Shown here: positions 5,884-31,238 of the stretch, in pieces
Numbering within the stretch: position 1 is the stretch's first letter
How the letters are laid out: each line of letters opens with the position of its first letter
Virus record (IMG/VR): IMGVR_UViG_3300024270_000052
Reading direction: 5' to 3' (one strand)
Source of the DNA: a virus
Lineage: Duplodnaviria; Heunggongvirae; Uroviricota; Caudoviricetes
Length of the DNA stretch: 64,000 nucleotides
Notes under the pieces: model-generated
Database searches by the model: none
The model's input: only the letters and a program-made list of their open reading frames with translations
Told to the model about the DNA's origin: nothing
Made by a program: the position numbers and the translations under genes

Positions 5884-6056
5884 TAAAAAGTTAATACGCG
5901 GGTAACAGGTCTAAGAAGACCATATTGCTCATTGACTACCTTACAAAGATATTCATTAGGACGCATTTTCTTATCAAGCCCATCACGACTTCTTAAAAGT
6001 TCCTTAGCTAATTCTTCAGGCATCTTATACTCAAAATAAGCATTCTTGTTTTCCAT
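5883..6056 (-). CDS. small hypothetical protein (57 aa)
   Basis: ATG at 6056; its TAA overlaps the primase ATG (TAATG). Below the track's 60-aa cut-off. Confidence 0.3.
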   Translation of the reverse strand: MENKNAYFEYKMPEELAKELLRSRDGLDKKMRPNEYLCKVVNEQYGLLRPVTRVLTF

Positions 6057-6070
6057 AATTATTACCTCTC

Positions 6071-7612: not shown

Positions 7613-7626
7613 TAAACATCATCCTC

Positions 7627-13150: not shown

Positions 13151-13187
13151 TGTAAATATTATACCAAAAAATTTTTTAAATGTCAAA
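13151..13187 (-). promoter_or_regulatory. promoter cassette (variant, -35 TTGACA)
   Basis: 'tgtaaatattataccaaaaaattttttaaatgtcaa'. Confidence 0.45.
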
Positions 13188-13450: not shown

Positions 13451-15403
13451 TTATTTTAAAAAATTTTTTTCAAATTCTTCTTCCGTAATAATCGGAATAC
13501 CAAGCTTTTGAGCAGATTGATTTTTTCCAGTAGTAGAAGCAATATCATTATTAATTAAATAACTTGTATTTTTGCTTACACTATCCATTACTTTTCCGCC
13601 CATATTTTCAATAATTAATTTTAAATCATCACGTTTTTTATAATTATTTAATTTACCAGTAATAACAAACTTTAATCCATCGCAAGTTTTTTCAATTTCT
13701 TCATTAATTATAGTATTTTGAATTGGAGGACAAATATATTTTTCATATATTTCATCTGCTTCACTATAATCAAAATTCCAAATAGCTAAAGTTTTTGATT
13801 CCGCAAAACCATCTAATTTAGAAAAATCAAATTTTTCATTTATCATATTCCTAAAGTTTAAATAAGTAGAACATTTCTCTATTAAAATTTTAGCTACAGA
13901 ATTTCCAATAAGAGGAATACCAAGAGCAGATATAAAAGAAACATCATCACATATCTTAGCTTCTTCAATCGCATTTAAGATTTTATCCACAGAAGCGATT
14001 CCAAAACCTGGTTTTTCAATCCATTCATCTCTATAATCTTTTAATGTAAAAATATCTTTTATATTTTCAATCCAATTCCAATCAATTAATTTTTCTAAAG
14101 TAGCTTTAGACAAACCTTTAATATTTAAACCTTTTTTTGAACAAAAATGGTCTAATTTATTAAGAAATTTACCTTCACAATTAAGATTATTACATACTAA
14201 TACAGTGGAACAATTTTCTGTAACTGTAATAGTTTCTCCACCACAAATAGGACATTGTCTTGGAATATCAATAATTAAATCTTGAATATAACAATTATCA
14301 CTTTTTTCTGCTCGTTCAATTTGAGGAATAATCATATTTCTTTTAGAAACCCAAATTTTTTGATATACTTGCGGCATATCACCTAAAGTTTCTTTAAGAA
14401 TACTAAGATTATGAAGATTTGCTCTTTCCACCATTGTACCATCAATTTCTACTGGATTAAATACTGCTACTGGTGTTAATACTCCTGTACGACCCATTGT
14501 ATATTCAATATTTAATAATGAGGTTTCATATTCTTCATCATAGAATTTAAATGCCATAGCATTTTTAAAATGGTGGTCAGTAGCTCCTAAACTTTTTCCA
14601 TATTCAATATCATTAAATTTAAAAACTATTCCATCAATAGGATAATTTAAATGATGTGCGGCTTCAATAATTTCATCATCAATTGTTTCCCAATTGAAAT
14701 CATTGTCATATCTATAAGGAACAATAGAAAAATTTAAAAAAGATAATTTTTTTAATTTTTCTGATAATAATTTAATATCATTAAAACCTTCAATAACATC
14801 CCAAGCAATAAAACATAAATTACGTTTAGCACATTCTTTGGAATCAAGTAATCTAATACTACCTGCCGCAAAATTACGAGGATTTTTATACATTGTTTTA
14901 AATAATTCATTAAAAGTATCAAGAGGGCAAATAATTTCTCCATCAACAATTAACTCATCTTTATAATCAATATATTTAGGGATATTATCAACAACCCAAG
15001 CATTATGAGTTATATCTTCTCCCTCAACTCCATTACCACGAGTTTCTGCGGAAACCAATTTACCATTTAAATATCGTAATGAACAAGTTAAACCATCCAT
15101 CTTAAACATACATAAATAATTTTTATTTTGTTTAAGAAAATTTTTAATTACATTAATATCTTTAGTCTTATCAAGTGAAAGCATTAAATGATTATGTTTA
15201 ACTTTTTTTAATTCATTTATTACATTATAAACGATTTTTTGTGTGGGTGAATCATCATAAATAATTCCAGTCTTTTCTTCTAAATGAATTAATTCAAAAA
15301 ACTTATCATCATATTCTTTATCAGAAATAGTTGGATGACCTTCATCATATTCTTTTGTTCTGGCATTTAAATAATCAATCAATTCTCTGATAATTAATTC
15401 CAT
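13451..15403 (-). CDS. ligA: NAD+-dependent DNA ligase
   Basis: 650 aa. Adenylation motif 'KMDGLTCSLRY' (KxDG), C-terminal zinc-finger cysteines (CPICGGE...C) and a BRCT-like C-terminus. No TAG. Confidence 0.85.
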   Translation of the reverse strand: MELIIRELIDYLNARTKEYDEGHPTISDKEYDDKFFELIHLEEKTGIIYDDSPTQKIVYNVINELKKVKHNHLMLSLDKTKDINVIKNFLKQNKNYLCMFKMDGLTCSLRYLNGKLVSAETRGNGVEGEDITHNAWVVDNIPKYIDYKDELIVDGEIICPLDTFNELFKTMYKNPRNFAAGSIRLLDSKECAKRNLCFIAWDVIEGFNDIKLLSEKLKKLSFLNFSIVPYRYDNDFNWETIDDEIIEAAHHLNYPIDGIVFKFNDIEYGKSLGATDHHFKNAMAFKFYDEEYETSLLNIEYTMGRTGVLTPVAVFNPVEIDGTMVERANLHNLSILKETLGDMPQVYQKIWVSKRNMIIPQIERAEKSDNCYIQDLIIDIPRQCPICGGETITVTENCSTVLVCNNLNCEGKFLNKLDHFCSKKGLNIKGLSKATLEKLIDWNWIENIKDIFTLKDYRDEWIEKPGFGIASVDKILNAIEEAKICDDVSFISALGIPLIGNSVAKILIEKCSTYLNFRNMINEKFDFSKLDGFAESKTLAIWNFDYSEADEIYEKYICPPIQNTIINEEIEKTCDGLKFVITGKLNNYKKRDDLKLIIENMGGKVMDSVSKNTSYLINNDIASTTGKNQSAQKLGIPIITEEEFEKNFLK

Positions 15404-15424
15404 AATAAAATCCTTTATGATTTA

Positions 15425-15467
15425 TTTTCTATATATATTATATAATATTTTTTTAAAAATATCAATA
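15425..15467 (-). promoter_or_regulatory. promoter cassette copy
   Basis: 'ttttctatatatattatataatatttttttaaaaatatcaa', followed by hairpin aaggaagct..agcttcctt. Confidence 0.55.
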
Positions 15468-15478
15468 TAAGGAAGCTA

Positions 15479-15751
15479 TTAAGCTTCCTTATAAATTCCA
15501 TATTTCATATCCTCTAATAATTGTTTATAAAAATTACAAAATGGAGAATCTGAAAAAGATATAACACTATCATTTATAAATAAAATACCTTTTATATTAG
15601 CATTCCCATTTGTAATAGTTACAGATTCTGAAGTAATATATTTATTTTTTATTTCTAAAAAAGAAATATCGTCTTTGTAATTAGGACAATTGTCTTCCCA
15701 CAAATCTAAAATATGACGAAAATCTTTATTTGTATAAATTATTTTTATCAT
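15479..15751 (-). CDS. hypothetical protein (90 aa)
   Basis: Track ORF. Confidence 0.4.
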   Translation of the reverse strand: MIKIIYTNKDFRHILDLWEDNCPNYKDDISFLEIKNKYITSESVTITNGNANIKGILFINDSVISFSDSPFCNFYKQLLEDMKYGIYKEA

Positions 15752-15753
15752 TT

Positions 15754-18147
15754 TTATACTTTACTCACTGAAATAATTTTATTATTTTTGATAATTTGAT
15801 TACCAACTGAAACCCTTCCAAGAGTTGGAATTTCATTAGATTTTATACAAATTGAATTTTTATCACCGCAGATTAAAATGTTATCTTCATTAGATAACAA
15901 GGCGGCCGCAGATACAAAACCTGTCGTTGTGGTAGGTTTATAACATAACAAACCTTTACCACCCTTCTTTTGGATAGGAGTTTCACTAATTAAGTATTTT
16001 TTACCTAATCCATTTTCAGTAAAGATAGCAATCATATCTTTTTCATCTCTAATGACAAGAGTAGTAATTACATTATCATCTTTACTTAAATTAATTCCTT
16101 TAACTCCTTGAGTTATGCGTCCCATAGCTCCAACTTCCATAGAATTAAATTTAATTGTATAACCATTTTTCGTGACAATAATGACAGGTTCATCTTTAAT
16201 TAAATTGACAGAAACTAATTCATCATCATCTTTAATATTAATTGCCGCAATTCCACTCTTTTTTGAAGTTTTAATATATTCGTCAAGCGCAGTTTTCTTT
16301 ACTAAGCCATTCTTTGTCGTAAATAATACATATTTAGCATCAGTATCTCTATAAATAGAATAAATTACTGTAGGATTTTCATTTGGTTCCATTGTAACCA
16401 AAGACTTAATAGATTGACCTTTTGCCGTATTATTTCCAACAGGAATATCGTTAACTAATAAACGATACATTCTTCCTTTATCAGTAAAAATCATTAGAGA
16501 ATCAATTGTATTAGTGCGGATTACCATTGAAGTAATATCATCTTGCGTGCGCACTCCTACACCATTTCTTCGTTGTGTACGGAAAGAAGAACTAGGAACT
16601 CTTTTAATTAAGCCACTTTCTGTCATAACAACTACACATTTTTCAGGCTCAACAAATTCAATTTCTTTTTCTTCTTTATTTTCAGAAATATTATTTAACT
16701 TTGTCCTTCTGGCATCACCATATGCGTCCCGCAAAGAAGATATTTTTTTAATTAATATTCCATCACGATAAGATTTATTTCCAATAATACGATTACATTC
16801 TTCAATAAAAATTTCCTTTTCTTGCTTCTCTTGGATAAGTTCATTTTTATCAATACGAGTTAATTTTACTAATTTCATATCTAAAATAGCATCTGCTTGA
16901 ATTTCATCTATATTCAAGAAAGAAACAAGACTTGTACGAGCAATATTTTTATTTTCTGAATTTTTAATTAATTTAATTACTTCATCAATTTTATCAATAG
17001 CAATAATTAAACCTTCAATAATATGTAATCTTTTTTCAGCTTTATCTTTATCAAAATATGTGGCATTAAGTAATACATCTTCTTGATGAATTACATAATA
17101 TTTAATTAAATCATAAAGAGAACAAAGCTTTGGTGTTCCATTTACAATAAAATTCATATTAAATGATAGAGTTGTCTGTAAATCAGTTAAAGCAAATAAT
17201 TTACTTAAAGCAGTTTGGATACATCCTTCATCTTTTACTGTGAATACAAGTCTATTAATACCAACTGATGATTCATCATCAAAATCAATAATACTTTTTT
17301 CAAGTTCTTCAATATTATCGTTAATTTGTTCTTTAATTTTATTTCTATATGTTCTATATGGAATTGAATTAAAAATAATTTTATTATTTTCAATTTCATA
17401 ATCACCACGAACTTTTAACGAAACATTTGATTTACCAGTAGCATATGCTGAACGCACTTCTTTAATATTGATGATTTGACCTCCTAAAGGAAAATCCGGT
17501 CCAGGAATATCTTTCATTAATTCATCAATATTAATATTTCCTTCATTTTCAATATAATGAATAATAGCATTACAAACTTCTGTTAAATTATGAGGAAGTG
17601 AATTGTGTGCCATTGAAATACCAATAGCCTGTCTACCATTACAAAGAGCATTTGGGAATAAACCAGGAAGAACTACAGGCTCCATAAATTCACCATTATA
17701 AGTCTCTTTTTCTGGAATAACTTTCTTTTTATAATCATTCATCATTAAATCAGTATATAAAGAAGGTTTTGCTTCAGTATATCTGGATGATGCTACCATA
17801 TCATTAGATTCTTGAGTTCCTAATGAACCTTGTCCTTTAACAAGTGGATATCTCATTAAAAACTCTTGTGACATTTTACATAAGACTCCATAACAAGAAA
17901 TATCACCATGAAAATATGATGTTGCTAACGTGCTACCAACGATAGCATTACATTTCTTTGTTTTTCCTTTAGAATCCATTTTAAGATAATCTTCCATAGT
18001 CCAAAGAATTTTTCTTTGGGCACTAAGTAAACCATCTTCTACTGCTGGAATCGCTCTATCAGTTAAAACTTCTTCCGCATAAACTAAGAAATTATCTTTA
18101 GCTTCATCTATAATATCTATTTCTGTAATAAAATTTTCTTTTTCCAT
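15754..18147 (-). CDS. type II DNA topoisomerase subunit A (GyrA/ParC-like)
   Basis: 797 aa. 'YFHGD' (HPHGD-like) and catalytic-tyrosine region 'ASSRYTEAK'. Lies next to the GyrB-like gene. No TAG. Confidence 0.8.
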   Translation of the reverse strand: MEKENFITEIDIIDEAKDNFLVYAEEVLTDRAIPAVEDGLLSAQRKILWTMEDYLKMDSKGKTKKCNAIVGSTLATSYFHGDISCYGVLCKMSQEFLMRYPLVKGQGSLGTQESNDMVASSRYTEAKPSLYTDLMMNDYKKKVIPEKETYNGEFMEPVVLPGLFPNALCNGRQAIGISMAHNSLPHNLTEVCNAIIHYIENEGNINIDELMKDIPGPDFPLGGQIINIKEVRSAYATGKSNVSLKVRGDYEIENNKIIFNSIPYRTYRNKIKEQINDNIEELEKSIIDFDDESSVGINRLVFTVKDEGCIQTALSKLFALTDLQTTLSFNMNFIVNGTPKLCSLYDLIKYYVIHQEDVLLNATYFDKDKAEKRLHIIEGLIIAIDKIDEVIKLIKNSENKNIARTSLVSFLNIDEIQADAILDMKLVKLTRIDKNELIQEKQEKEIFIEECNRIIGNKSYRDGILIKKISSLRDAYGDARRTKLNNISENKEEKEIEFVEPEKCVVVMTESGLIKRVPSSSFRTQRRNGVGVRTQDDITSMVIRTNTIDSLMIFTDKGRMYRLLVNDIPVGNNTAKGQSIKSLVTMEPNENPTVIYSIYRDTDAKYVLFTTKNGLVKKTALDEYIKTSKKSGIAAINIKDDDELVSVNLIKDEPVIIVTKNGYTIKFNSMEVGAMGRITQGVKGINLSKDDNVITTLVIRDEKDMIAIFTENGLGKKYLISETPIQKKGGKGLLCYKPTTTTGFVSAAALLSNEDNILICGDKNSICIKSNEIPTLGRVSVGNQIIKNNKIISVSKV

Positions 18148-18159
18148 ATTTATAACCTC

Positions 18160-20055
18160 TTAATCAAAATTAAATCCTAATTGTGTAGCATTTTCATAGA
18201 TAAATTTCTTGCGAGGTTCTACAGCTTGACCTTGTAAAACTTCAAGAAGTTTTGTTGTTTCTACAGCATCAGATACTGTAATTCTTTTAAAACGCTCATT
18301 TTCAAAACATACTTTTCGTAAATCGGCAGGATTTAATTCGCCAAGACCTTTTGCTCTAAGGATATCATATCCAGACTTTGCTGTCTTTTTCCAATCTTCT
18401 AACTCTTTATCACTATAAAAATACAATTCATTTTTGCCAGTTCTTACAATGTAAAGAGGAGTTACAGCTCTATATAACATACCTGCGTCAACCAAAGGAC
18501 GCATATATGTATAGAAAAATGTAATAAGAAGAAGTTCAATATCAGCACCATCGCTATCTTGGTCACTTGTAATTACAATTTTATTAAATTGACATTTAGA
18601 AACATCAAAATCTTTACCAAATCCGCAACCAATTACTTTAATAATATCTGACATTTCTTGATTGGTAAGAATTTTATCTATAGATGTTTTTAAAGGAGAA
18701 ATAATCTTTCCTCTCAGCATATAGATACAGTCAGTTTTGACATTTCTTGCTTCAACTGCCGCACTACCTGCGGACAATCCCTCAACCAAAAGTAAATTTC
18801 TTTCCTTTGGGTTTTTATTAACACAATCAATAAATTTATTACTAATTGACATTTTTGCTTTTAGACCTTTTGGAGCATTTTTATCTCTAACAGCATCTCT
18901 GGCTTTCTTAGCCGCTTCTCTTGCTTTACGAGCATTAATTGCCTTATCTGCGATTTCTTTAATTGCTTTCTCATTATTAGAAAGCCAATTCCGCAATTCA
19001 TCAGCAATAACTTCTGTAAAAGGAGTCATATCTAATTTTACAATTCTACTCTTGGTTTGCGCATCATAACTAACACCAGGAGCAGTAATATTAAATACAA
19101 GATACATTCCTTCTTGACAATCATCACCAGTTAAATTTTCATCTTTATCTTTTAACCATTTTTTTTCTCTAAAGAATTTATTCATTTCTCTAGTAATGAT
19201 TGTTTTCATTTGTGTGATATGCGGACCGGAATCAGTTAAACCTGTATTTACATATGGCACAATTGAAGTAGAATAACTATTAGTATAAGTTAAAACCAAA
19301 TCAATTTTATTTTTATTATTTTCAAAATTTATATTTAATCTATTTTTAATAATTTCCGTATCTTTAACAGATTCATTTACTAAATCAGTTAAACCATTTT
19401 TTGAATAATATTCTTCATTATTAAGAATAATTTTTAATCCGGGACATAAACAAACTATTACTTTAAAAAGTTTTTTAATTACATTAATATCCACTTCTGG
19501 ATTGTTAAAAAATTCTTCACTCGGCTTCCATTTAACTAATGTTCCTGATGGTGTAATATTATTTTCCCATTTTCCAACATCTCTTTTTTCAAAGATTCCT
19601 TCTTTAAACCAAATGTGCTCATATTTTCCATCTCGCCAAGAAATAACTTCCAACCAATGTGAAAGATAGTTAGCAAGTTTAGAACCAATACCATTCAATC
19701 CAAGAGCTGTTCCTTCATAAACCCCATCTTCAGAATATTTACCTGAAGTATTTAATACACTAAAAGATGCTTCAAGAACAGTTTTTCCATCATCTCTCAT
19801 AAGATTAGGAATAAAACCTTGACCATTATCTTCTACAATAATTGTATTATCATCCAGAATATCTACTTTAATTATATTACCATGTCCAGCTTTAAATTCA
19901 TCAACCGCATTTGATACAATTTCAATTAAAAGTTGTGTTGAATATTCAGTTGAACCGACATACACTCCAGGCCGCAATCTTGTAAATTCAAGTGGTGATA
20001 GTGATTCAATACTATTCTCATTATATAATTTTTTATTTTCCATTTTTAACCTCAC
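18160..20055 (-). CDS. type II DNA topoisomerase subunit B (GyrB-like ATPase + TOPRIM)
   Basis: 631 aa. GHKL ATPase N-terminus, TOPRIM 'LLVEGLSAGSA' (EGDSA-like) and 'DQDSDGADI'. No TAG. Confidence 0.8.
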   Translation of the reverse strand: MRLKMENKKLYNENSIESLSPLEFTRLRPGVYVGSTEYSTQLLIEIVSNAVDEFKAGHGNIIKVDILDDNTIIVEDNGQGFIPNLMRDDGKTVLEASFSVLNTSGKYSEDGVYEGTALGLNGIGSKLANYLSHWLEVISWRDGKYEHIWFKEGIFEKRDVGKWENNITPSGTLVKWKPSEEFFNNPEVDINVIKKLFKVIVCLCPGLKIILNNEEYYSKNGLTDLVNESVKDTEIIKNRLNINFENNKNKIDLVLTYTNSYSTSIVPYVNTGLTDSGPHITQMKTIITREMNKFFREKKWLKDKDENLTGDDCQEGMYLVFNITAPGVSYDAQTKSRIVKLDMTPFTEVIADELRNWLSNNEKAIKEIADKAINARKAREAAKKARDAVRDKNAPKGLKAKMSISNKFIDCVNKNPKERNLLLVEGLSAGSAAVEARNVKTDCIYMLRGKIISPLKTSIDKILTNQEMSDIIKVIGCGFGKDFDVSKCQFNKIVITSDQDSDGADIELLLITFFYTYMRPLVDAGMLYRAVTPLYIVRTGKNELYFYSDKELEDWKKTAKSGYDILRAKGLGELNPADLRKVCFENERFKRITVSDAVETTKLLEVLQGQAVEPRKKFIYENATQLGFNFD

Positions 20056-20503
20056 TCGGTTTTATTTTACCTGTTGCTAATTTATCTGCTAATTCATTTC
20101 CTTTATTTCCATTATGACCTTTAATTTTTCTTAAATCAATTCTATAACCTTCTTTATATAAATTATAATATGCTTTGATTAAATCAAGATTTTCTGGAAT
20201 TTGACCATTTGACTTAATCCAACCATTTCTTTCCCAATTAAACATCCAAGTATTAAATGTATTAACTGCATAAGAAGAATCACTATAAACAATTGGGGGC
20301 ATCATAAAACCTGTTGTACTTTCATGAATACCATAATTAATCATAGTATATAATATTGCTTTTAATTCTTGAATATTATTAGTTGTTTCTTTTTCTTGAT
20401 GTGAATAAGTTGCCATAATATTATTCACATCATCACATATGACAACTCCATAACCTCCTGGTCCAGGATTAGGATGAGCTGAACCATCTGTATATATAAT
20501 CAT
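20033..20503 (-). CDS. rnhA: ribonuclease H
   Basis: 156 aa. RNase HI catalytic pattern (MIIYTDGS...ELKAI...SDSSY...KGHNGNKGNELADKLA). Confidence 0.8.
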   Translation of the reverse strand: MIIYTDGSAHPNPGPGGYGVVICDDVNNIMATYSHQEKETTNNIQELKAILYTMINYGIHESTTGFMMPPIVYSDSSYAVNTFNTWMFNWERNGWIKSNGQIPENLDLIKAYYNLYKEGYRIDLRKIKGHNGNKGNELADKLATGKIKPSEVKNGK

Positions 20504-20615
20504 ATTATTTTCCTTTTGAATAAAAATAGTAAATATATATATTAATATTTATATATTATTTAATTAATTTATATATTAATATTATATTTACTATTCTATA
20601 TTTTATTTTATTTTA
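20504..20615. repeat. AT-rich iterated 'tatatattaatatt' repeat region
   Basis: About 110 bp of above 90% AT with direct repeats 'atatatattaatatttatatatta' and 'tttatatattaatattatattta'. Non-coding; flanked by the RNase H/topoisomerase replication genes. Confidence 0.35.
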
Positions 20616-20653
20616 TATATATATATTATATCATATTTTTTTTATATTGTCAA
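20615..20653 (-). promoter_or_regulatory. promoter cassette copy (-35 TTGACA)
   Basis: 'tatatatatattatatcatattttttttatattgtcaa'. Confidence 0.55.
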
Positions 20654-20660
20654 GTAAATC

Positions 20661-20945
20661 TTACAAAGTACTTAATGTAATATCTTCTAATTTATTTGCT
20701 GTAATAGCGACACCATCGCAATTATTATATGGATAAGATGTTAAAGATGTCTATAAAAATTGATTATCATTATGAATAATAGATATATTATTAATGCATC
20801 CATTACGAATAGCCATTAAATTAATTGAAGGAAATAAATCTTCAAGACGTTTCATAATATCATTAGCTGTTTCTCTATCTATATTCTAATCAAAAGAAAT
20901 TAATAAAGTATCGCCATCAGAAATATTTAAATGATTAATATTCAT
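20661..20945 (-). CDS. hypothetical protein with two in-frame TAG codons
   Basis: ATG at 20945; MNINHLNISDGDTLLISFD(TAG)NIDRETANDIMKRLEDLFPSINLMAIRNGCINNISIIHNDNQFL(TAG)TSLTSYPYNNCDGVAITANKLEDITLSTL; TAA at 20661-20663. Confidence 0.3.
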
Positions 20946-20967
20946 TTTATTTTCTCCTTTTTTATTT

Positions 20968-20998
20968 TTATTATATCATATATTTTAATAAAAGTCAA
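20968..20998 (-). promoter_or_regulatory. promoter cassette (short variant, -35 TTGACT)
   Basis: 'ttattatatcatatattttaataaaagtcaa' + hairpin gggctaaagatt..aatctttagccc. Confidence 0.45.
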
Positions 20999-21118
20999 TA
21001 AAAATAAAAATGGGGCTAAAGATTTTAATCTTTAGCCCTTATATTAAATTCCATAATTAATATCTGGAATGTAATCATTTAAATTTTCTTCTGTAACAAT
21101 ATTAGAATTTATATTCTA

Positions 21119-21448
21119 CTATTCTTCATTTACTCCCCAATCAATTTGTGGAACAGAATTACCATATATAGCATTTACTTCTGCCATAACAGATTCAAAC
21201 TTTATACCATCTTTAGAATTTTCTACTGTACTTTTTTTATAATAGAATACTTGACTTACTCCATAAGCGGTCCACGGAAAACTTATCATTGCCGCTAACC
21301 AAGGTAAAGAACCCATATAACCGCAAAAAATACAATAAAATGCTAATCCTATAAAAGACAAGGTCAATATCCATAATAATGCTGACTCTTGGATTAATAG
21401 CACTTTAGAAAATTCTTTTTTTTGATTTTTATTATTTTTCTTGCCCAT
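21119..21448 (-). CDS. small membrane protein, holin/lysis-accessory candidate
   Basis: 109 aa with two predicted TM helices. Its start overlaps the endolysin stop. Confidence 0.4.
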   Translation of the reverse strand: MGKKNNKNQKKEFSKVLLIQESALLWILTLSFIGLAFYCIFCGYMGSLPWLAAMISFPWTAYGVSQVFYYKKSTVENSKDGIKFESVMAEVNAIYGNSVPQIDWGVNEE

Positions 21449-22361
21449 GTAATCTATAAATTAAAGTAGCGGCTTCTTCTCTTGTTAAAAATTTACGATA
21501 CATACCATTACCTGTCATATCACCTTTAATAATACCATTTTCCTCACACCATTTTCGCGCTTCTTCAGACCAACTATTTGGTGGCTATTTAGCTAAATTA
21601 ACAAGATAATTATTCATCATTTTATTAAACTATTCTTGTGTTAAACTATTGGATTGATTTGGTAAAGTGACTGGTGTAGAGGGAATTGGGTCTGGTTGCG
21701 GTTGCTAAATTTCAGGTTGTACTGAATTTAAAATAGATTGTACATCATTTTTAACTGTTTCCATATTTTTTCCATATTTTGGAAACCAGTGCATTACATC
21801 TCCATGATTATTGCCCATTCCAAGAGCATGGGCATCTTTATGACAAAGAATTGTAGGAATTTTTTTCCCATTAACTTCAACATAACCATGCGGGTCTATA
21901 TTAAATGTTTTGCATAAATAAGCTGTTAATTCACAAGCTTCTTTATATACTGTATCAAAATATTCTTTATTTGTTAAATCATCTTCACAAATTTCAAATT
22001 GAATCCATCCATTATTACATGAACCATTTTCACCACTGCCGCAACCCCATGGACGATAAGTCCAAGGTAAAGTCTATAAAGTGGTAACACTTCCATCTGC
22101 TAATTTACCAATCCAAGCATTTAAACCAGACTAAATATCAATTTGATTATAACTATTATTATATTTATTAGTTCCAATCATTGTCATTAATTCTTCATAT
22201 TTAGGGTCAGTTTTACTTGGCTAAACATATCTTTTTAAAGTAGGATTATTTGCGCCAGTACTATGCCATAATACACCTAAAACAGTCATAGGTTTTGTCC
22301 CTTTATAGCAGGTACTATCTGTTAAAATACATTGTGTTGGGGTTTGATTTAAATATTTCAT
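21432..22361 (-). CDS. endolysin: N-acetylmuramoyl-L-alanine amidase (Amidase_2/PGRP-like) + C-terminal SLH domain, six in-frame TAG codons
   Basis: GGAGG RBS + ATG at 22361. 'VLWHSTGANNP', 'NGWIQFEICED', 'ILCHKDAHALGMGNNHGDVMHWFP' fit Amidase_2. C-terminus 'SWSEEARKWCEENGIIKGDMTGNGMYRKFLTREEAATLIYRL' fits the S-layer-homology motif. CTA (TAG) occurs six times in frame; TAA stop at 21432-21434. Confidence 0.6.
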
Positions 22362-22385
22362 ACCTATTTCCTCCTTCTCTTTTTT

Positions 22386-23063
22386 CTATACTTTTATTGG
22401 TGATGGGCTAGTAATTTCAGAAACTCCGATTCCAGGTTCTTTTAAGAGAGGTCTTAAAATTTCTCTTTCACCAGCCGCAAATCCTTTTTTATATCTATCA
22501 TGTGTTACTAGTTGATATTTTTTATCATAAAATATATCAAATAATCTTTCATGTGAAATTGTTTTTATATTAATAAATTTAATACAATCTAAAAATTCTT
22601 TGTAAGCTCCATTGATTCCTCTAGCAATTGCCCACGCCCAAAAACATTCCTAAAAAGCTCTGTTAGTTTTATCTAAATCTATATATGATATTATTTTATT
22701 TTTTATCTAATCATAATAAATAGATTTCATATACTTATATTCACATTCAAAAAAATAATTATTACCATATTTATTATAGCATTCAGTCCATACTTCTTTT
22801 ACTTCTTCTGGACTTGAACAATAATTACTACCAGGCCAAGTTTTACTAACAAAATCTTTAGTTGCTCTATAATATAATTTATTTGATTCGTTAGGAAAAT
22901 ATTTTTTTAAAAAATTAATACAATTTCCCCAACGTAATGTAAGCTAATATGAGCCGCAAGACAATCCCCAATCATAGCCGCAATTTCCAAAAGCCATTGA
23001 ACCTAAATTACCAGATTCAAACTATTTGATATATTTACCTATATAATCGGTCAATATAATCAT
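22386..23063 (-). CDS. lysozyme-like domain protein, at least four in-frame TAG codons; in frame with the downstream endolysin
   Basis: ATG at 23063. 'FESGNLGSMAFGNCGYDWGLSCGSY' resembles the lysozyme-like domain of ORF 1854..2684. The only candidate terminator is TAG at 22386-22388, and the frame is continuous with the endolysin ATG at 22361. Confidence 0.35.
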
Positions 23064-23107
23064 TCCTTTCTTGAGAAATAAAAAAGGAGGAATATAAAAT
23101 TCCTCCG

Positions 23108-25285: not shown

Positions 25286-26749
25286 TTACTGAGCAGCCTT
25301 ACCACCAAGATAACCAGAAATTACTGACTTAATATCAATACCGGTAGATTCGGTAAGAGCCTTAATAATCTGGTCACTGGTCTGCATTACATCACTAACA
25401 AGCTTTGTGGTTCCATCAGAGCCGTACATGGTAATGGAATCAACAGCAGAGAGAGGAGCTGCCGCATTCTTAACTACTTCGGGGAGAGCGTTAAGATACA
25501 TTTCCAGGATAGAAGCTTCACCCATCTTCTTCTGTGCTTCAGCCTTCTTATCAATACCTTCGGCTTCAGCAACACCGGTAGCACGAATACCTTCTGCTTC
25601 TGCCTTCTTAATAGCCGCAATACCTTCCGCTTCAGCCAGAGCAGCATACTTATCTGCTTCAGCCTTAGCTCTAATAGCTTCTGCTTCCTGAGCTGCCGCA
25701 TACTTATCTGCTTCAGCTTTCTGCTCTCTTTCATAGCGTTCAGCTTCTGCTTTTCTCTGACGAACTACAAGCTCAGCGGCTGCTTTCTGCTCTGCGGCAT
25801 ACTTATCAGCATCTGCCTGCTTACGAACAAGAGCATCAAGTTCATACTCACGCAGTTCAATTTCCTTCTGTCTAAGTTCTGCCTCACGTTCAGCCTTAGC
25901 GATTTCTGCGTCAGTAGAAGCAATATTCTTCAGCTTGCGCTGATTCTCTGCTTCAATCTCCATAGCAGCTTCAGCCTGCGCCTTCTGCGTATCTGCACTC
26001 TTCTTCAGTTCAGCCTGACGAATTTCAAGAGCGTTATTGCGGACGGCGATTTCTTCAGCGGCCGCAACCTTAGCGTCATTGGCGCTCTTGGCGTTTTCTG
26101 CCTCAGCAATAGCAATTTCTCTCTGTGCGTCAGACTTAGCAATAGAAGCCTTCTTACGAATTTGTTCTACGTTATCAATACCAAGATTATTGATAACATC
26201 ATTATCATCTACGAAATTCTGAACGTTAAATGAAATTAATTCAAGTCCAAGACGCTTAAGGTCGGGAACTGCGTTTTCCTATACCTTTTCAGAGAATGCC
26301 TTTCTATTACTTACCATATCAGTAAGTTTCATCTGGCCTACAATTTCTCGCACATTACCTTCAAGCAGACAAGAAATCTTTTCATTAATTACATTTTTCT
26401 TTACTCCAAGGAAGTTCTGGCAAGCAAGTTCCATCATTTCGGGGGTCTGACCAATACGAACATTTACATTGGAATCAACTCGTACATTAATGTATTCTGC
26501 TGTTGGAACCGCAGATGAAGTTTTTACATCAATCTGAATTACACCAAGTTCAAGCTTGTCAAGACGTTCAAAGAAAGGAATTTTAATGCCGGCTCTACCA
26601 ATAAGAATTCTTGGCTTCTTTCTCAAACCAGAAATTACATATGCCATATCCGGAGGAGCTTTCACATAACCACTCATAAGAATGAGAAGAAGAGCAACAA
26701 TTCCAATAACGGGGATAAGAAAAGATGCGGAAGTAATAAATTCTAACAT
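25286..26749 (-). CDS. flotillin-like SPFH/Band-7 protein, one in-frame TAG
   Basis: N-terminal TM + SPFH domain (track ORF 26279..26749). C-terminal flotillin-type Ala/Glu repeats 'KAEAEAERYEREQKAEADKYAAAQEAEAI' (25286..25963). The parts are joined in frame through CTA at 26279-26281; the intervening 315 nt has no stop. Confidence 0.65.
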
Positions 26750-26789: not shown

Positions 26790-27371
26790 TTAAAGATATT
26801 TAATACATTTTTCTACTTCATTTTTACATCTATTAATTACTGATTCAATATTAATAGGAAAATTGAGTAAAGAATCAACTCCACAATGAAACATAAAAGG
26901 TCTATCTTCATAGAAATCTGTCTGCTGATGTGTATGTCCATAAAGATTAATTTCAATCTGTTTTAGACTATCTTTTTCAAAATTAGAAGTAATAGTGGGA
27001 TAATGAGAACAATAAAAATTATATCCTTCACTTTTAAAACGAAGAGCATCTCCCATTTCAACTACATTAGGAAGATTTTTATAAAGTTCCCAACGTGGAT
27101 TTGTGTCATGGTTTCCTCTTACAATATGTAGTCTGCCTTTAAGATTTTTAAGCATTCCGATACCATAATTATTATCACCAAGCATTAAATCACCAAGAAT
27201 ATATACATCATCTTCATCATTTACTGTATTATTAAAATTTTCTACAATAGATTCATCATGGTGAGCAATGCAAGTAAATCCGCGAGGTCCCCACACAAAT
27301 TCTCTATCATGCCCAATGTGGAGGTCACTTGTAATCCAGATATTATTCATTTTCATCCACTCCTTTATCAA
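26790..27371 (-). CDS. calcineurin-like metallophosphoesterase (candidate 2',3'-cyclic phosphodiesterase/3'-phosphatase)
   Basis: 'DLHIGHD', 'GDLMLGDNN', 'GNHD' motifs. Overlaps and is co-oriented with the Pnk-like kinase. Confidence 0.65.
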   Translation of the reverse strand: MIKEWMKMNNIWITSDLHIGHDREFVWGPRGFTCIAHHDESIVENFNNTVNDEDDVYILGDLMLGDNNYGIGMLKNLKGRLHIVRGNHDTNPRWELYKNLPNVVEMGDALRFKSEGYNFYCSHYPTITSNFEKDSLKQIEINLYGHTHQQTDFYEDRPFMFHCGVDSLLNFPINIESVINRCKNEVEKCIKYL

Positions 27372-27930
27372 TTGAAATCATATAATTATTATCTTCATTA
27401 ATATTTAAAATATAAGTATAATTATGTTTTTCTCCATAATTAGCAGGATTATATTTATTAAACATATTTTTAATTACATTATCAGGAACATTTGCTCTCC
27501 CAGAACGAAATGAATTACGATAAACACAAGTATCTACTGAAAGATTAAAATTTACAGGGACAACAGAAATAGAAGATAAATTGAGTTTATCCAACACCTT
27601 ATTCCTTGCGGCCTCATTTAAATGAGTAGCATCAACAAAAATAATTTCTTTATCAGTAGATTTAATACTTTCGTTAATTTTATTAATAAATGTATTAAAC
27701 ACTAAATTTTCTTTAGCAAAATAATCATCATTATCTTTCAAAAGAGAAAAACGAATTTCATCTCTGCTGATATGAATACTATTATCTAAATATTCCTGCT
27801 GATTTTTCACCCAAGTAGTTTTTCCTGAACCAGGAATGCCGCAAAGTAAATAGAGAGTTTTATTCATTATATACTCCTTTCGCAAAATCAATTTTAAATT
27901 GTTCAACTTCTTCCATTGAACGACATTCAA
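27343..27930 (-). CDS. polynucleotide 5'-kinase (T4 Pnk kinase-domain-like)
   Basis: 'LLCGIPGSGKTTWVKN...ISRDEIRF' closely matches T4 Pnk 'IGCPGSGKSTWAREF...INRDDYRQ'. Confidence 0.7.
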   Translation of the reverse strand: MNVVQWKKLNNLKLILRKEYIMNKTLYLLCGIPGSGKTTWVKNQQEYLDNSIHISRDEIRFSLLKDNDDYFAKENLVFNTFINKINESIKSTDKEIIFVDATHLNEAARNKVLDKLNLSSISVVPVNFNLSVDTCVYRNSFRSGRANVPDNVIKNMFNKYNPANYGEKHNYTYILNINEDNNYMISIDKGVDENE

Positions 27931-28105
27931 TATGATTTATTTCATCGCCGCAATATAAACAAAATAATTTCTTTTTATGAAATTTTTCTCGTTCACATCC
28001 ACGTTTTCTTACTATTGGAATACCCTTATTTCCACATTTTGTACAATAAAAATCATGAGTATTACTTTTTACATTTTGACGCGCCATTGCTTTAGTCCTT
28101 ATCAT
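27860..28105 (-). CDS. zinc-ribbon protein (81 aa)
   Basis: CTKCG...CLYCGDE four-cysteine pattern. Confidence 0.35.
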   Translation of the reverse strand: MIRTKAMARQNVKSNTHDFYCTKCGNKGIPIVRKRGCEREKFHKKKLFCLYCGDEINHIECRSMEEVEQFKIDFAKGVYNE

Positions 28106-28307
28106 TAATATTAATATTACCGATATTTAAACATTTAAACAACCAAAGAATTCCATACATTTGCCAAAAAGTTAATGTTGGAGCAGAAAATACTGGAACA
28201 ATAATTGTAGACCAAAGCCAGCAAGCAATAAGTGCGCCGGGAACATAAACTAACATATAAATTAAAAATACTAATAGAGCAGCAAAAACTCCAGATAAAA
28301 ATTTCAT
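28092..28307 (-). CDS. small membrane protein (71 aa)
   Basis: Two hydrophobic helices. Confidence 0.35.
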   Translation of the reverse strand: MKFLSGVFAALLVFLIYMLVYVPGALIACWLWSTIIVPVFSAPTLTFWQMYGILWLFKCLNIGNININDKD

Positions 28308-28330
28308 TTATAATTTATCTCCTTTCTTTA

Positions 28331-28372
28331 TTTTCTATATATATATTATATCATATTTTTTTATTATTTTCA
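28331..28372 (-). promoter_or_regulatory. promoter cassette copy
   Basis: 'ttttctatatatatattatatcatatttttttattattttcaa'. Confidence 0.55.
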
Positions 28373-29053
28373 AATTTGAAAAATATGTTCATCAAAAGTA
28401 TCTAAATCTAAAAGTACTGTCATTCCAGTAGCAAAAGCTCCACAATCAATACATACTTTTTTATCATTACAATACCAGAAAGCACCTTCAAATTCAGCTT
28501 CTCTTATACCAAGGTCTTCGGCAAGATAAGGGATTGGAGTGTGTCCATGAACCATAAGTGTTCTGCCTTCTGGAGGGACATCAAGAAAATGTTCTCTACT
28601 CCAAAGTAAATCCTCTTCACAAGGAATAGTATCATTATAGTTGGAATAACCAGCATGGCACATTATAATTTCAATATCTTGATATTGATTATAATAAGAT
28701 TTAATTGTTGGAAGTTTAGATAAATAATTCATCCATCCCATATCGGCGCCATCAGTAATCCAACCAAATAAAGTTGATTCTCCTCCATTAGAGAAAAGAA
28801 GATGGCAATTTTTTCCCATATATTCATCTCTACCATACTCACACATAGCTTTTACAAGCATATCTTCATGGTTTCCTTTAAGATAAATAAATTGCGGGTC
28901 GCATGCAACTGCTTTAATTAATTCCCAACTTGCGGGACCGCGGTCTCCGCAATCTCCAAGACAATATACAATATCATTTTTTTTAAGAAATGTTTTAATT
29001 TGCTTATATAAATCAATCTGACCATGTAAATCAGATACAGCATATATATTCAT
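28370..29053 (-). CDS. Ser/Thr-phosphatase-like metallophosphoesterase (lambda-PPase family)
   Basis: 'SDLHGQ', 'GDCGDRGP', 'GNHE', 'GHT' motifs. Confidence 0.7.
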   Translation of the reverse strand: MNIYAVSDLHGQIDLYKQIKTFLKKNDIVYCLGDCGDRGPASWELIKAVACDPQFIYLKGNHEDMLVKAMCEYGRDEYMGKNCHLLFSNGGESTLFGWITDGADMGWMNYLSKLPTIKSYYNQYQDIEIIMCHAGYSNYNDTIPCEEDLLWSREHFLDVPPEGRTLMVHGHTPIPYLAEDLGIREAEFEGAFWYCNDKKVCIDCGAFATGMTVLLDLDTFDEHIFQI

Positions 29054-29342
29054 TTAAATGCCTCCTATAACTGAAAGAATAATTACAGCAAATAAAATAC
29101 ATACTACAATTACGCTTGTGCCGCCAATTAAACCAAGTATAATTCCACTCATTAGTCTAATCTCTCCACATAAATTTCATCTACTGGGTCAGTTACCCAA
29201 GAAATATCATTTTCTTTATCAGCATCCATGTCAAAAGCAATATTTTCCGCTTCATCTACGTTTTCTGCATCTACATAATAAGTATGAACTTTTTTAAAAA
29301 CTACAGCATATTTATGTTTCATATATTTTATTTCCTTTCTTA

Positions 29343-29383
29343 TTTTATATATATATTATATCATATTTTTATAATAAAATCAA
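29343..29383 (-). promoter_or_regulatory. promoter cassette copy
   Basis: 'ttttatatatatattatatcatatttttataataaaatcaa' + hairpin aagcccttctattctaaatagaagggctt. Confidence 0.55.
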
Positions 29384-29417
29384 ATAAGCCCTTCTATTCT
29401 AAATAGAAGGGCTTATT

Positions 29418-29906
29418 TTATTTAAAATTATATGTTCCGGTTGTAATAATAATATTATCTAAACTAAATGTTTCACTAATTTCAATTTCTACAGGATTTT
29501 TTGTATCACGAAGTTTAAAGAAAACCATAACTTCAAGTGAAGCGCCTGGTCTTAAATCAAGGTCACTATTTTCATAATATTTATAATATTCATTATCAGC
29601 ATCGGGCCAAGTAACTTCCAATTCAACTCCATTTTGAAAAGCTTCATTCATTAAATTTAACCAATAAGAACAAGTCTCTGTACTATTATTAGTCCATTTA
29701 ATTTTAACACCAAGACTAGGATTATCATCCCAGTCTTTTGTAAGAATACATCCTAAAATTTCAGCATTAAAATCACTTTTTAATTCATTAATTGTAGTAT
29801 CAATAGTTGGAAGCTCACTTTGGTTATTAATAACACCAACAGTAAAACACCCGACAAAAATAAGAAAAATTGCTAAACAAATTACAATAATTTTACTCTT
29901 ATCCAT
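29418..29906 (-). CDS. secreted/lipoprotein-like hypothetical protein
   Basis: Signal peptide with Cys (LIFVGC). Confidence 0.4.
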   Translation of the reverse strand: MDKSKIIVICLAIFLIFVGCFTVGVINNQSELPTIDTTINELKSDFNAEILGCILTKDWDDNPSLGVKIKWTNNSTETCSYWLNLMNEAFQNGVELEVTWPDADNEYYKYYENSDLDLRPGASLEVMVFFKLRDTKNPVEIEISETFSLDNIIITTGTYNFK

Positions 29907-29950
29907 TTATTACCTCAAATTTTTACTTGCTTATATTGTTCATGTAATGT

Positions 29951-30412
29951 CTACAAATTAGCTTCAGGACAACTTTGTAGAAATTCTCTTAACTCCATTA
30001 GACATTTTCCAAGCATATTGTGTCCAATATTATTACATACACCCCAATACGTATCATTCCAAGTATTACCTTCAATTAATTCACTATCTCCAGTAGCAAT
30101 AAGTTTATCTCGTAATTCTAATGAAGTTGTAAATTTAAGATAAAGACCCAGTTTCATTACCATTACACGAGCAGTATCCCAGTCAGCGCGTAATTTTACA
30201 CCTCGGCCTAAATATTTAGCTCTACCTGGAGTAGCGGCTGCGGCGATTCTTTTTCGTTCTTCTATATCAGATGTTTTCATTGCTTGAAAGAAATGTTCAT
30301 TAGTAGGATAAATAATTCCATCATATTCAAATGGTGAATTATAAAAATTACTTAAAAAAGCATATTCTCCATTAAAACAATCAATTCTATTTCCCATTTT
30401 TAAAAACTCCAT
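29951..30412 (-). CDS. NADAR-domain protein (YbiA-like)
   Basis: 'FYNSPFEYDGIIYPTNEHFFQAMK...AKYLGR...DW...YWG' is the canonical NADAR signature. Confidence 0.75.
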   Translation of the reverse strand: MEFLKMGNRIDCFNGEYAFLSNFYNSPFEYDGIIYPTNEHFFQAMKTSDIEERKRIAAAATPGRAKYLGRGVKLRADWDTARVMVMKLGLYLKFTTSLELRDKLIATGDSELIEGNTWNDTYWGVCNNIGHNMLGKCLMELREFLQSCPEANL

Positions 30413-31235
30413 TCATCTTGGACATAATGCCGACAAAAGGAATATTAATATTATCTTTATGTCTACTAATGCTATGAAGATGTTTAATTGCGGCAAGAGT
30501 ATTTACATCTTCTGGAATAATTCTATATCTAATATAATTATCCAACTCTTTATAAGTAAATCCAAAATTTTCTTCATCAGTTTTACCGCACATACCATCA
30601 TCGGGAGCTTTGCCTACAATATAATCCGGTAGACCAAGAGCATAGCCAATTTGACAAACTTCTGTAGCAGTATAATCTGCTAAAGGACTAAAATCACCTA
30701 CGCCATCGCCATACTTTGTAAAATATCCAATATAATCTTCAGATAAATTACAAGTATTTACTACTCTACCTCCATTTTCAAGGGCTGCCGCAATTGCATA
30801 AAGAGTAGTCATACGAATTCGTGCGGGTAAATTTGTTGTAACAACAGAATTATCCTTGAAATTAATTTTATAATCAATTGGTGTGGGACAATAATCACAA
30901 AATGTATTATCAAATGCGTTATAAATGGCTTTAGTTGTGTCGCCAATATTTACTGTAAAATAATTAATTCCAAGAATATTACAGACATCTTTAGCACAAT
31001 CTACATCACATTTTCGCATATTACCATCGGGAATAATAATACCATATACTCTATTTTTTCCAAGAGCGGCGGTACAAAGAGCAGCACAAACCGCAGAATC
31101 CTTACCGCCAGACATTCCAATTACTGCTGGAGAATTCGGTCCATTATCAGCAAAATATTCCTTAATCCAATCAATAATTTTATTTTTCTGAAGTTCAGCA
31201 TCAAACACATAATCTGTATTAAAAATAGTACTCAT
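30387..31235 (-). CDS. nadE: NH3-dependent NAD+ synthetase
   Basis: PP-loop 'GMSGGKDS' and 'GYFTKYGDGVGDFSPL', matching E. coli NadE motifs. Confidence 0.8.
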   Translation of the reverse strand: MSTIFNTDYVFDAELQKNKIIDWIKEYFADNGPNSPAVIGMSGGKDSAVCAALCTAALGKNRVYGIIIPDGNMRKCDVDCAKDVCNILGINYFTVNIGDTTKAIYNAFDNTFCDYCPTPIDYKINFKDNSVVTTNLPARIRMTTLYAIAAALENGGRVVNTCNLSEDYIGYFTKYGDGVGDFSPLADYTATEVCQIGYALGLPDYIVGKAPDDGMCGKTDEENFGFTYKELDNYIRYRIIPEDVNTLAAIKHLHSISRHKDNINIPFVGIMSKMNGVFKNGK

Positions 31236-31238
31236 AAT

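Follow-up and report, generated by a model that had tools for sequence, protein, structure and literature searches.

TAG codons are concentrated in the lysin–holin, nuclease and tail-fibre genes of a large recoded phage

A 64,000-nucleotide stretch of viral DNA (IMG/VR record IMGVR_UViG_3300024270_000052, hereafter the window) carries on its minus strand, within positions 20661–23063, a lysin–holin cassette and a small open reading frame (ORF) that contain in-frame TAG codons, and is compared here with the described systems closest to it. Classical holin–endolysin cassettes of Gram-positive phages include endolysins with internal translation starts. The crAss-like phages, a different lineage from the phage of the window, have Bacteroidota as hosts and genomes of about 100 kb. 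For crAss-like phages with genetic code 15, that code has been confirmed by metaproteomics (Peters et al. 2022, PMC9523058). The preprint by Borges et al. 2021 (10.1101/2021.08.26.457843) describes partially recoded phages with suppressor transfer RNAs (tRNAs), in which amidase and transmembrane lysis proteins are preferentially recoded, structural genes are also recoded, a TGA-rich intron/homing endonuclease occurs in the Agate phages and recoding of the replication machinery is variable; the gut and rumen clades with code 15 named there are the crAss-like, Lak, Jade, Sapphire, Agate, Garnet, Amethyst and Topaz phages. In the Phassvirus group, Babkin et al. 2023 (PMC10607447) report that phAss-1, of 136 kb, has TAG inside many characteristic ORFs, together with suppressor tRNA genes. 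A preliminary description of the window, made from its letters alone, had noted that a skew of TAG towards lysis and late genes is proposed in other recoded phages to delay their expression until a suppressor tRNA accumulates, and the same pattern, rationale and timing model are given by Borges et al. The skew itself is already published for other recoded phages, of which this phage is a further clean example; the new point here, an incremental addition, is the arrangement of promoters and terminators around the TAG-rich units.

The phage of the window resembles those of the Borges preprint in its partial recoding (28% of its genes carry TAG, against 26% in the least-recoded clade of that paper), its own suppressor tRNA, its low G+C content and the scattering of recoded modules over a large genome, and also in that its most recoded genes include those for a lysin of amidase type and a transmembrane lysis protein, that endonuclease genes are recoded and that recoding of replication genes is variable. 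It differs from them in that no release-factor/synthetase ‘code-change module’ is seen in the 81.5 kb of this phage analysed here, and in that its suppressor tRNA has an extra arm in the variable region. Its lysis cassette is embedded in the early-gene region, bracketed by terminators and promoterless, and the words ‘promoter’ and ‘terminator’ do not occur in the text of the preprint. A genome of about 186 kb with 28% recoded genes is compatible with several of the large Borges clades, a comparison made by these two figures and not by terminase phylogeny. TAG is read as glutamine, as in crAss-like phages with code 15 (PMC9523058), here as judged from the genes, and the combination of in-frame TAGs with a suppressor tRNA gene is as described for phAss-1 (PMC10607447). 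The cassette shares with classical Gram-positive ones a small two-helix membrane protein adjoining a multidomain peptidoglycan hydrolase, with an in-frame internal Shine–Dalgarno site and ATG at the domain boundary; unlike them, its proposed control is by multiple in-frame ambers and terminator insulation. The phage adds an independent lineage of large phages, with Gram-positive-style signals, to the cases that link recoding of stop codons with lysis, fibre and nuclease genes.

Distribution of TAG and its reading as glutamine

The analysed set consists of the window with 8.8 kb to its left and 8.7 kb to its right from the same phage, altogether 81.5 kb or about 44% of the estimated genome, on which 92 genes (24,053 codons) were curated with the guidance of ENA table-15 gene calls. 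Lysis and tail/fibre genes were classed as late, and replication and auxiliary-metabolism genes as early; capsid, portal and terminase genes were not found in the 81.5 kb, nor were they reached by walking outwards from it. Nearly all gene labels of the preliminary description were borne out by Pfam and PHROG scans, which confirmed primase, DnaB-like helicase, the ligase dependent on nicotinamide adenine dinucleotide (NAD), topoisomerase II A- and B-like subunits, RNase H and PhoH among replication and repair proteins, and NadE, PncB, a Thg1-like protein and an RNA ligase among auxiliary ones; further matches were tail fibres with Mtd_N-type N-termini, a major-vault-protein-like (MVP-like) gene and two SPFH/flotillin genes.

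TAG occurs in frame 57 times in the 92 genes, 26 of which (28%) carry at least one, and its density is not uniform across functional classes (p ≈ 2 × 10−5 for heterogeneity, Monte Carlo). The density falls from 19.2 TAG per 1,000 codons in lysis genes (45% of glutamine-type codons) through 11.9 in GIY-YIG endonuclease genes (24%) and 4.0 in tail and fibre genes (15%) to 0.9 in replication genes (2.9%) and 0.67 in genes for auxiliary enzymes (3 in 4,451 codons; 2.6%). The claimed concentration of TAG in lysis and fibre genes relative to early genes was borne out, with 32 TAGs in 4,992 late codons against 10 in 12,264 early codons (odds ratio 7.9, Fisher p = 3 × 10−10), or 32 of 143 against 10 of 358 when counted per glutamine-type codon (p = 3 × 10−11). 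TAG makes up 13 of the 29 glutamine-type codons of the lysin and holin genes, a share that exceeds that in fibre genes for the lysis class as a whole (45% against 15%, p = 0.0016), and the tail-fibre genes taken separately, with 16 TAGs in 4,028 codons, still differ from early genes (p = 7 × 10−5). In the coding frame the density is 0.86 per 1,000 in early genes and 6.41 in late genes (7.5-fold), and in frames +1 and +2 it is similar in both (18.4 and 16.1 per 1,000 positions in early genes, 23.2 and 19.6 in late genes), so that the skew is not compositional.

The ten TAGs of the early class comprise three in the last 12 codons of their genes, three in the first 35 codons, where the gene start may be misplaced, and four that are clearly internal. 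The ten genes that had been listed as free of TAG (primase, helicase, both topoisomerase subunits, ligase, RNase H, PncB, NadE and the Thg1-like and Rnl2-like genes) hold 4,555 codons, in which about 11 TAGs would be expected at the overall rate, and contain just one, at the penultimate codon of NadE. The replication core, described as lacking TAG, is indeed poor in it at 0.9 per 1,000 codons, but the RecJ-like and YorH-like genes carry two each, and the AAA_24, YorF-like and PhoH genes one each. Three early genes have TAG close to the C-terminal end, namely NadE (codon 283 of 284, 30387–30389), NADAR (154 of 165, 29948–29950) and the YorH-like gene (172 of 176, 7624–7626), and these codons look like former TAG stops that would now be read through to the next TAA or TGA.

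Among the TAG-rich genes beyond the lysis cassette, the gene at 11766–12755 (minus strand, 329 codons) encodes a membrane-anchored coiled-coil GIY-YIG nuclease and has six TAGs between codons 75 and 158, where seven in 330 codons had been reported. It had been labelled T5orf172, which is a related GIY-YIG-type domain; the only Pfam match at E ≤ 0.001 is GIY-YIG (PF01541, E = 1.4 × 10−9), and the PHROG matches are homing-endonuclease/GIY-YIG families. The tail-fibre block at 51768–61117 (plus strand; Mtd_N-type N-termini, Pfam Mtd_N and Phage_fiber_2) has 0, 0, 0, 4, 1, 3 and 1 TAGs in its successive genes. The reported one to four TAGs per fibre gene hold for four of them (four at 53822–56353, one at 56436–58133, three at 58219–60471 and one at 60536–61117), but the fibre-block genes at 52070–52426 and 52426–53802 have none. 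At 45893–48638 (minus strand; PHROG tail families), a tail fibre-like gene of 542 codons with three TAGs, whose start is probably the GTG at 48638, is followed by a tail protein gene of 371 codons with none. A further tail-fibre paralogue of 462 codons with six TAGs lies inside the tRNA array described below (contig L002 4737–6125, window-equivalent 66573–67961) and is similar in its C-terminal domain to the fibre gene at 58219–60471.

TAG is shown by several comparisons of genes to have been partly reassigned, as far as can be read from the DNA, from a stop to a sense codon for glutamine. Stop-to-stop ORFs of at least 100 residues cover a fraction of 0.839 under the standard code; this rises to 0.929 if TAG is taken as sense and to 0.863 if TGA is. 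The 92 curated genes end in TAA (79) or TGA (13), never in TAG. The in-frame TAGs sit inside conserved Pfam domains, among them both catalytic domains of the lysin, and also occur in fibre and GIY-YIG genes. Glutamine stands opposite lysin codon 281 in 117 of 120 aligned homologues and opposite codon 330 in 118 of 120; it is the commonest residue opposite codons 311 and 478, and opposite codon 138 among the homologues that align there. Database proteins of other recoded phages may have been translated with glutamine by convention, and the codons were therefore checked directly in two relatives, L013 and L015, which have CAA or CAG at 6 of the 11 lysin TAG sites and mostly AAA at the others; the exceptions are one TAT, one CCT and one ACA, and serine or leucine codons never occur at any of the 11. 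Conversely, the TAGs of the two relatives' lysins correspond to CAA in this phage. A reading of TAG as serine or leucine, considered because of the long extra arm of the suppressor, is ruled out by the aligned residues and the orthologous codons. The base following TAG does not differ from that following CAA or CAG (p = 0.24).

The lysis cassette, its transcription signals and the suppressor tRNA

The lysin gene (21432–23063, minus strand) is a single ORF of 543 codons that encodes a two-domain endolysin, with a VgrG3-like lysozyme domain at residues 9–186 (PF21277), an Amidase_2 domain at residues 294–409 (PF01510) and a C-terminal part with a wall-binding-like tail. TAG stands at 11 codons (14, 40, 119, 138, 226, 281, 311, 330, 453, 478 and 493), or 48% of its glutamine-type codons, four of them before Met235, one at the interdomain junction and six after it. 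The preliminary description had split this gene into an endolysin with 6 TAGs in 310 codons and an upstream lysozyme-like ORF with at least 4 in 225; both counts fit, the former for the part from Met235 and the latter for the N-terminal part, but the two are one gene. Two separate lysis ORFs are ruled out by the best 28 lysin homologues, all full-length fusions of a VgrG3-like lysozyme with Amidase_2 (500–590 residues), and by the sense codons (AAT, AAA) that replace the junction TAG in L013 and L015. At the junction (22359–22388, minus strand), the TAG of codon 226 is followed by AAGGAGG, 8 nucleotides and an in-frame ATG (codon 235). The lysin junction is the sole place among the 92 genes where AGGAGG-N5–10-ATG occurs in frame within a gene, and an equivalent Shine–Dalgarno site and ATG are kept at the lysin interdomain linker of L013 and L015, making three phages in total. 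Codon 235 is therefore a likely internal start, and a second, amidase-only product of 309 codons, still with six TAGs, is plausible from this arrangement. A sequence search of the PDB with the amidase domain gave no match.

The end of the lysin gene is overlapped by a gene of 134 codons (21044–21448, minus strand) for a small membrane protein with two hydrophobic helices, as read from its translation; it has no Pfam or PHROG match, and from its position and topology we call it holin-like. Its two TAGs form a TAG-TAG pair at codons 110–111 in the C-terminal tail. Beyond it lies an ORF of 94 codons with two TAGs and no PHROG match (20661–20945, minus strand; to 20998 with its promoter), headed by its own sigma-A-type promoter, TTGACT-17-TGATATAAT, at 20998–20970.

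TAG hardly occurs in the genes that stand behind a repeated early-promoter cassette, those for replication, NAD salvage, RNA repair and SPFH proteins, and it is concentrated in the units without an early promoter, that is, the lysin–holin unit, the GIY-YIG nuclease gene and the tail fibres. The cassette, TTGAnn-17-TGnTATAAT-ATATATA, is present in about 20 copies heading minus-strand operons (for example at 13158–13186, 20625–20653, 28345–28373, 51268–51296, 51599–51627 and 62778–62806). Strong Shine–Dalgarno sites and sigma-A-type extended −10 promoters together are expression signals of Gram-positive style, and at most indirect hints about the host. The density of TAG is 6.6 per 1,000 codons in units without an early promoter and 1.1 in units with one (p = 2 × 10−11), under a grouping that is independent of function and was chosen post hoc. 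No early-type promoter was seen upstream of the plus-strand fibre block, and both tail genes at 45893–48638 stand behind a hairpin that resembles a terminator and follows the MVP-like gene.

On the minus strand, eleven intrinsic terminators were found, nine of them with an early promoter about 30–110 nucleotides further on; the other two, which lack one, stand before the lysin and the GIY-YIG gene, and no units are richer in TAG than these. The first (GGAGGAATTTTATATTCCTCC followed by a T run; 23086–23106, minus strand) lies between the PhoH stop and the lysin, 22 nucleotides before the lysin start, and no early promoter was found between it and the lysin. The second (12795–12771, minus strand) ends 15 nucleotides before the GIY-YIG gene, again with no promoter between. 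A third hairpin (21013–21038, minus strand) closes the lysin–holin unit, with equivalents after the holin gene of L013 and L015, and the terminators before the lysin, after the holin and before the GIY-YIG gene are all kept in both relatives. Downstream, a perfect consensus extended −10 promoter, TTGACA-17-TGATATAAT (20625–20653, minus strand), heads the TAG-free operon of RNase H and the GyrB-like and GyrA-like genes. Genes that directly follow a terminator carry TAG in 5 of 11 cases against 26 of 92 overall, a difference judged, with no formal test, to be too weak; more useful than the post-terminator position alone is whether a promoter comes after the terminator.

No tRNA genes were found in the 64-kb window. 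Its right-hand extension, contig L002, which is 100% identical to the window over 12.8 kb, holds an array of 14 tRNA genes, one with the anticodon CUA. The tRNA(CUA) gene lies at L002 7401–7495 (window-equivalent 65203–65297, minus strand), 1.2 kb past the right end of the window. It is 95 nucleotides long, owing to a stem–loop of about 20 nucleotides inserted in the variable region, and does not encode CCA; positions 1 and 72 are mismatched or unpaired and position 73 is G, as in the tRNA-Gln(UUG) of the phage and the suppressors of its relatives. Orthologous tRNA(CUA) genes are present in relatives, where the suppressors measure 71–77 nucleotides, and that of L091 stands in the same tRNA gene order. 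The gene has its own perfect consensus promoter, TTGACA-17-TGnTATAAT, and similar promoters precede the suppressor genes of L033 and L093.

The relatives L013 (G+C 0.38) and L015 (G+C 0.34), on contigs of 183 and 186 kb, have in common a gene order of PncB, NadE, flotillin, PhoH, lysin, holin-like gene, RNase H and Gyr genes, ligase and GIY-YIG gene, and the gene-level skew recurs in both. L013 and L015 have, respectively, three and four TAGs in the lysin, two and three, mostly in the tail, in the holin-like gene and five and at least six in the GIY-YIG gene, and none in either phage in GyrA, GyrB, ligase, NadE or flotillin; syntenic GIY-YIG orthologues carry five, six, nine and three. The positions of the TAGs are almost never common between phages. 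With the relatives pooled and deduplicated (L014 is the same as L013, and L016 the same as L015), TAG accounts for 12 of 55 glutamine-type codons in lysis genes against 73 of 1,109 in replication, auxiliary and SPFH genes (p = 3 × 10−4), and per 1,000 codons for 0.3–0.65 in auxiliary, 0–0.35 in SPFH, 8.3 in lysis and 19.8 in GIY-YIG genes. The replication genes of the pooled relatives are heterogeneous, with values near 0 for DNA polymerase III α, ligase and Gyr genes, and fibre orthologues were too divergent for pooling.

Explanations for the skew

We consider it fairly probable, and the best explanation of the skew, that TAG codons delay the lysis genes until the suppressor tRNA has accumulated. 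The causal delay is a hypothesis in the literature as it is here, and we infer its timing from the arrangement of genes and signals. Early in infection, host RNA polymerase and ribosomes would express the TAG-free early operons and the tRNA array; host release factor 1 (RF1) would still stop at UAG, and leaky messenger RNA (mRNA) of the lysin, holin and nuclease genes would give truncated products only. As the suppressor is processed, charged with glutamine and accumulates, read-through would rise, and the yield of full-length protein would follow the read-through per TAG raised to the power of the number of TAGs. At 50% read-through per TAG, a gene with 11 TAGs would give about 0.05% full-length product and one with three about 12%; at 90% the yields would be about 31% and 73%. 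The 11-TAG lysin would thus be held off longest and show the steepest switch-on, fibre genes with one to six TAGs would come earlier, and terminator insulation would act as a second, transcriptional lock on the lysis cassette.

Several observations weigh against this explanation. The suppressor gene has a strong early-type promoter, so that a delay could not lie in late transcription of this tRNA and would have to arise as it accumulates, is processed, is charged or competes with RF1, and the insertion of about 20 nucleotides in the variable region of the predicted suppressor is unusual. Internal TAGs occur in genes behind early promoters (codon 5 of the MVP-like gene, 70 of AAA_24, 218 of the YorF-like gene and 168 of PhoH), and the TAG-bearing 94-codon ORF has a promoter of its own. 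TAG is lacking in Phage_lysozyme2 and NAGPA+SPOR, two genes of this phage related to the cell wall, and in the holin orthologue of one relative. The RecJ-like (up to 21 per 1,000 codons), primase and SF1 helicase genes of some relatives are TAG-rich, at 4.4–21 per 1,000 across two pooled sets. No release factor or aminoacyl-tRNA synthetase family of Pfam was found among the scanned proteins or in the precomputed gene tables of the 81.5 kb. Accessory code-change genes occur in some recoded clades only and are not obligatory.

It is possible, though we think it improbable, that timing is mainly transcriptional, through terminator read-through, antitermination or an unrecognised late promoter, with the TAGs as a leak-proofing backup. 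The lysin–holin and GIY-YIG units are the only ones directly behind a promoterless terminator, in all three phages, and the early-type promoter of the suppressor tRNA itself points the same way. Fibre genes, however, carry TAG without a tight junction from terminator to gene, and an antiterminator or late sigma factor was not identified in the analysed set; this account is, moreover, compatible with delay by TAG, from which it differs only in the dominant layer.

Somewhat more doubtful is a purely passive constraint, by which TAG would be barred from genes needed before the suppressor is available and would drift neutrally in later genes, with no timing function. The free turnover of TAG positions between relatives agrees with it, as do the frequent exchange of TAG with CAA, CAG and AAA, the differing sets of TAG-bearing replication genes across the family, the one TAG-free holin orthologue and the legacy-stop appearance of near-C-terminal TAGs in early genes. 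Pure drift predicts one level in all late genes, however, whereas the TAG share of glutamine codons is threefold apart between lysis and fibre genes; independent lineages keep lysin, holin and GIY-YIG genes rich in TAG although the sites turn over, and the TAG-rich units are also insulated by terminators, which points to deliberate tight control. The excess of lysis over fibre genes and the conserved gene-level enrichment weaken the passive view.

Delay by TAG can also be put in a more elaborate form, which we offer tentatively and regard as unlikely in all its parts. In it, a conserved two-key lock would combine a promoterless lysis cassette between terminators, whose mRNA would arise by read-through only, with ambers that await a threshold of suppressor, a tRNA with an early promoter of its own; the TAG count per gene (11, 6 and 1–4) would grade the order of expression in a multiplicative way, the TAGs of the holin tail would yield a truncated protein early and the complete one late, as an antiholin–holin-like pair, and the membrane-anchored GIY-YIG nuclease would be a third effector, late and dangerous, under this lock.

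Ancestry offers a very improbable account, by which the TAG-rich genes evolve fast or came in recently from phages with heavier recoding. No phage modules are exchanged more often than lysins, fibres and homing endonucleases, and both L015 and relatives in IMG/VR contain further inserted ORFs that are endonuclease-like and rich in TAG. Against it, synteny with relatives is kept by the lysin, holin and GIY-YIG genes at 40–61% identity, and the lysin, with a G+C of 0.29, does not stand out from the genome. Identity to L013 and L015 is 58–61% for the lysin, 53–54% for GyrA and 57% for the ligase, and protein divergence does not correlate with TAG density (rho = 0.19, p = 0.27); with the lysin as conserved as GyrA and the ligase, divergence is not the cause of the skew, and import or fast evolution appears largely refuted. 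The timing hypothesis becomes testable at this single locus, where the gene-level skew is kept, codon positions turn over, evolutionary rate does not explain the pattern, the TAG-rich units follow terminators with no early promoter and the suppressor tRNA gene has a consensus early promoter.

That the standard code applies and ORFs broken by TAG are pseudogenes or mistaken gene models, as their fragmentation by table 11 gene callers (JGI, Joint Genome Institute) might suggest, is ruled out for practical purposes by the 11 TAGs that share a single frame and span both conserved catalytic domains of the lysin, glutamine standing at the conserved columns, identical sequence in at least six assemblies, the same pattern in relatives, the tRNA(CUA) gene and the lack of any curated gene that needs TAG as a stop. 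Annotation of this phage family with table 11 fragments lysin and fibre genes, as seen in the JGI calls.

Neighbouring gene blocks and the wider genome

The window has a G+C content of about 30% and is transcribed from the minus strand from position 1 to about 51.5 kb, followed by a plus-strand block at 51.8–61.1 kb. The whole genome is estimated at about 186.6 kb from two JGI contigs (99,463 and 87,327 bp, sample 3300029705) that overlap by 136 bp at window positions 20501–20636. This break in the JGI assembly falls in AT-rich promoter DNA that separates RNase H from the lysis cassette, and gene synteny in relatives supports continuity of the window across it. The sequence is present in at least six metagenome assemblies; the right side is 100% identical, and on the left side the large JGI and ENA contigs differ by one 1-nucleotide indel only. 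At position 3103 the window is one T short of the other assemblies that cover the site, and this frameshifts the RecJ-like DHH gene (2723–4467, minus strand) in the window only; the gene is intact, with 581 codons, in the other assemblies.

Searches for described relatives and for more of the genome gave little. Megablast of window positions 13000–37000 against 50,697 GenBank phage records returned no matches, and the best tblastn matches of the GyrA-like protein, mostly gyrase-like, were at most 35% identical and included no annotated relative. The exact 25-mer of the promoter cassette is also found in more than 120 metagenome contigs of relatives, other phages and bacteria, and a scan of metagenomes with the cassette yielded at least 120 such mixed loci, none of which extends this phage. 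The AAA ATPase, used as a query for homologues, matched no more than one representative, 96% identical and on a short contig; upstream of the AAA ATPase, the relatives have fibre-like and endonuclease genes, and capsid genes were not found there. A four-step walk of about 38 kb through IMG/VR relatives past the AAA ATPase met fibre-like genes and then small, mostly TAG-free accessory genes. With NrdD as the query, 4.3 kb more of this phage was obtained (NrdG, dUTPase), with nothing structural, and the NAGPA protein as a query in IMG/VR recovered no relative. The NAGPA+SPOR gene itself (L002 1747–2607, window-equivalent 70091–70951), which has no TAG here, carries TAG in nine of nine IMG/VR relatives (7 per 1,000 codons).

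Downstream of the lysis cassette, the block at 13451–20503 (minus strand; Pfam) encodes RNase H, the topoisomerase II B- and A-like subunits, a small protein and NAD-dependent ligase in 2,320 codons with no TAG. Primase, a small ORF and the DnaB-like helicase (4783–7612, minus strand; PHROG 47, Pfam DnaB and DnaB_C) likewise have none in 936 codons. On the other side of the cassette, the auxiliary operons for NAD salvage and RNA/tRNA repair (26790–45757, minus strand; Pfam) are built as modules of terminator, promoter and operon and are almost free of TAG. They encode PncB, NadE, nicotinamidase-like, NMNAT-like, NADAR, macro and Thg1-like proteins and RNA ligase, along with an AAA_33-type kinase, a nucleotidyltransferase, a cREC_REC domain protein and several phosphoesterases, a set that is compatible with the countering of host attacks on NAD or tRNA.

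The MVP-like gene (48761–51223, minus strand), which has its own strong promoter, encodes major vault protein shoulder and repeat domains (PF11978, E = 4 × 10−20) and is kept at 40–67% identity in 27 IMG/VR contigs of 13–226 kb. It belongs to a group of genes in which codon usage is bimodal: the MVP-like, flotillin, SPFH, DUF2828/vWA, PncB and RNA ligase genes (48761–51223, 25286–26749, 38044–38991, 61180–62697, 31239–32462 and 39521–40927) use CAG almost exclusively for glutamine, for example with 0 CAA against 26 CAG, have a G+C content at third codon positions of about 0.3 against a genome median of 0.16, and are essentially free of TAG. The preference for CAG also holds in relatives (109 CAA and 577 CAG in MVP-like genes, 7 and 162 in DUF2828 genes). 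To the left of the window, the gene for DNA polymerase III α (L007 11688–16748, window-equivalent −5330 to −270) is split into a PHP part of 474 residues and a C-terminal part of 770 residues by a GIY-YIG/NUMOD3 endonuclease gene of 260 codons, which carries one TAG.

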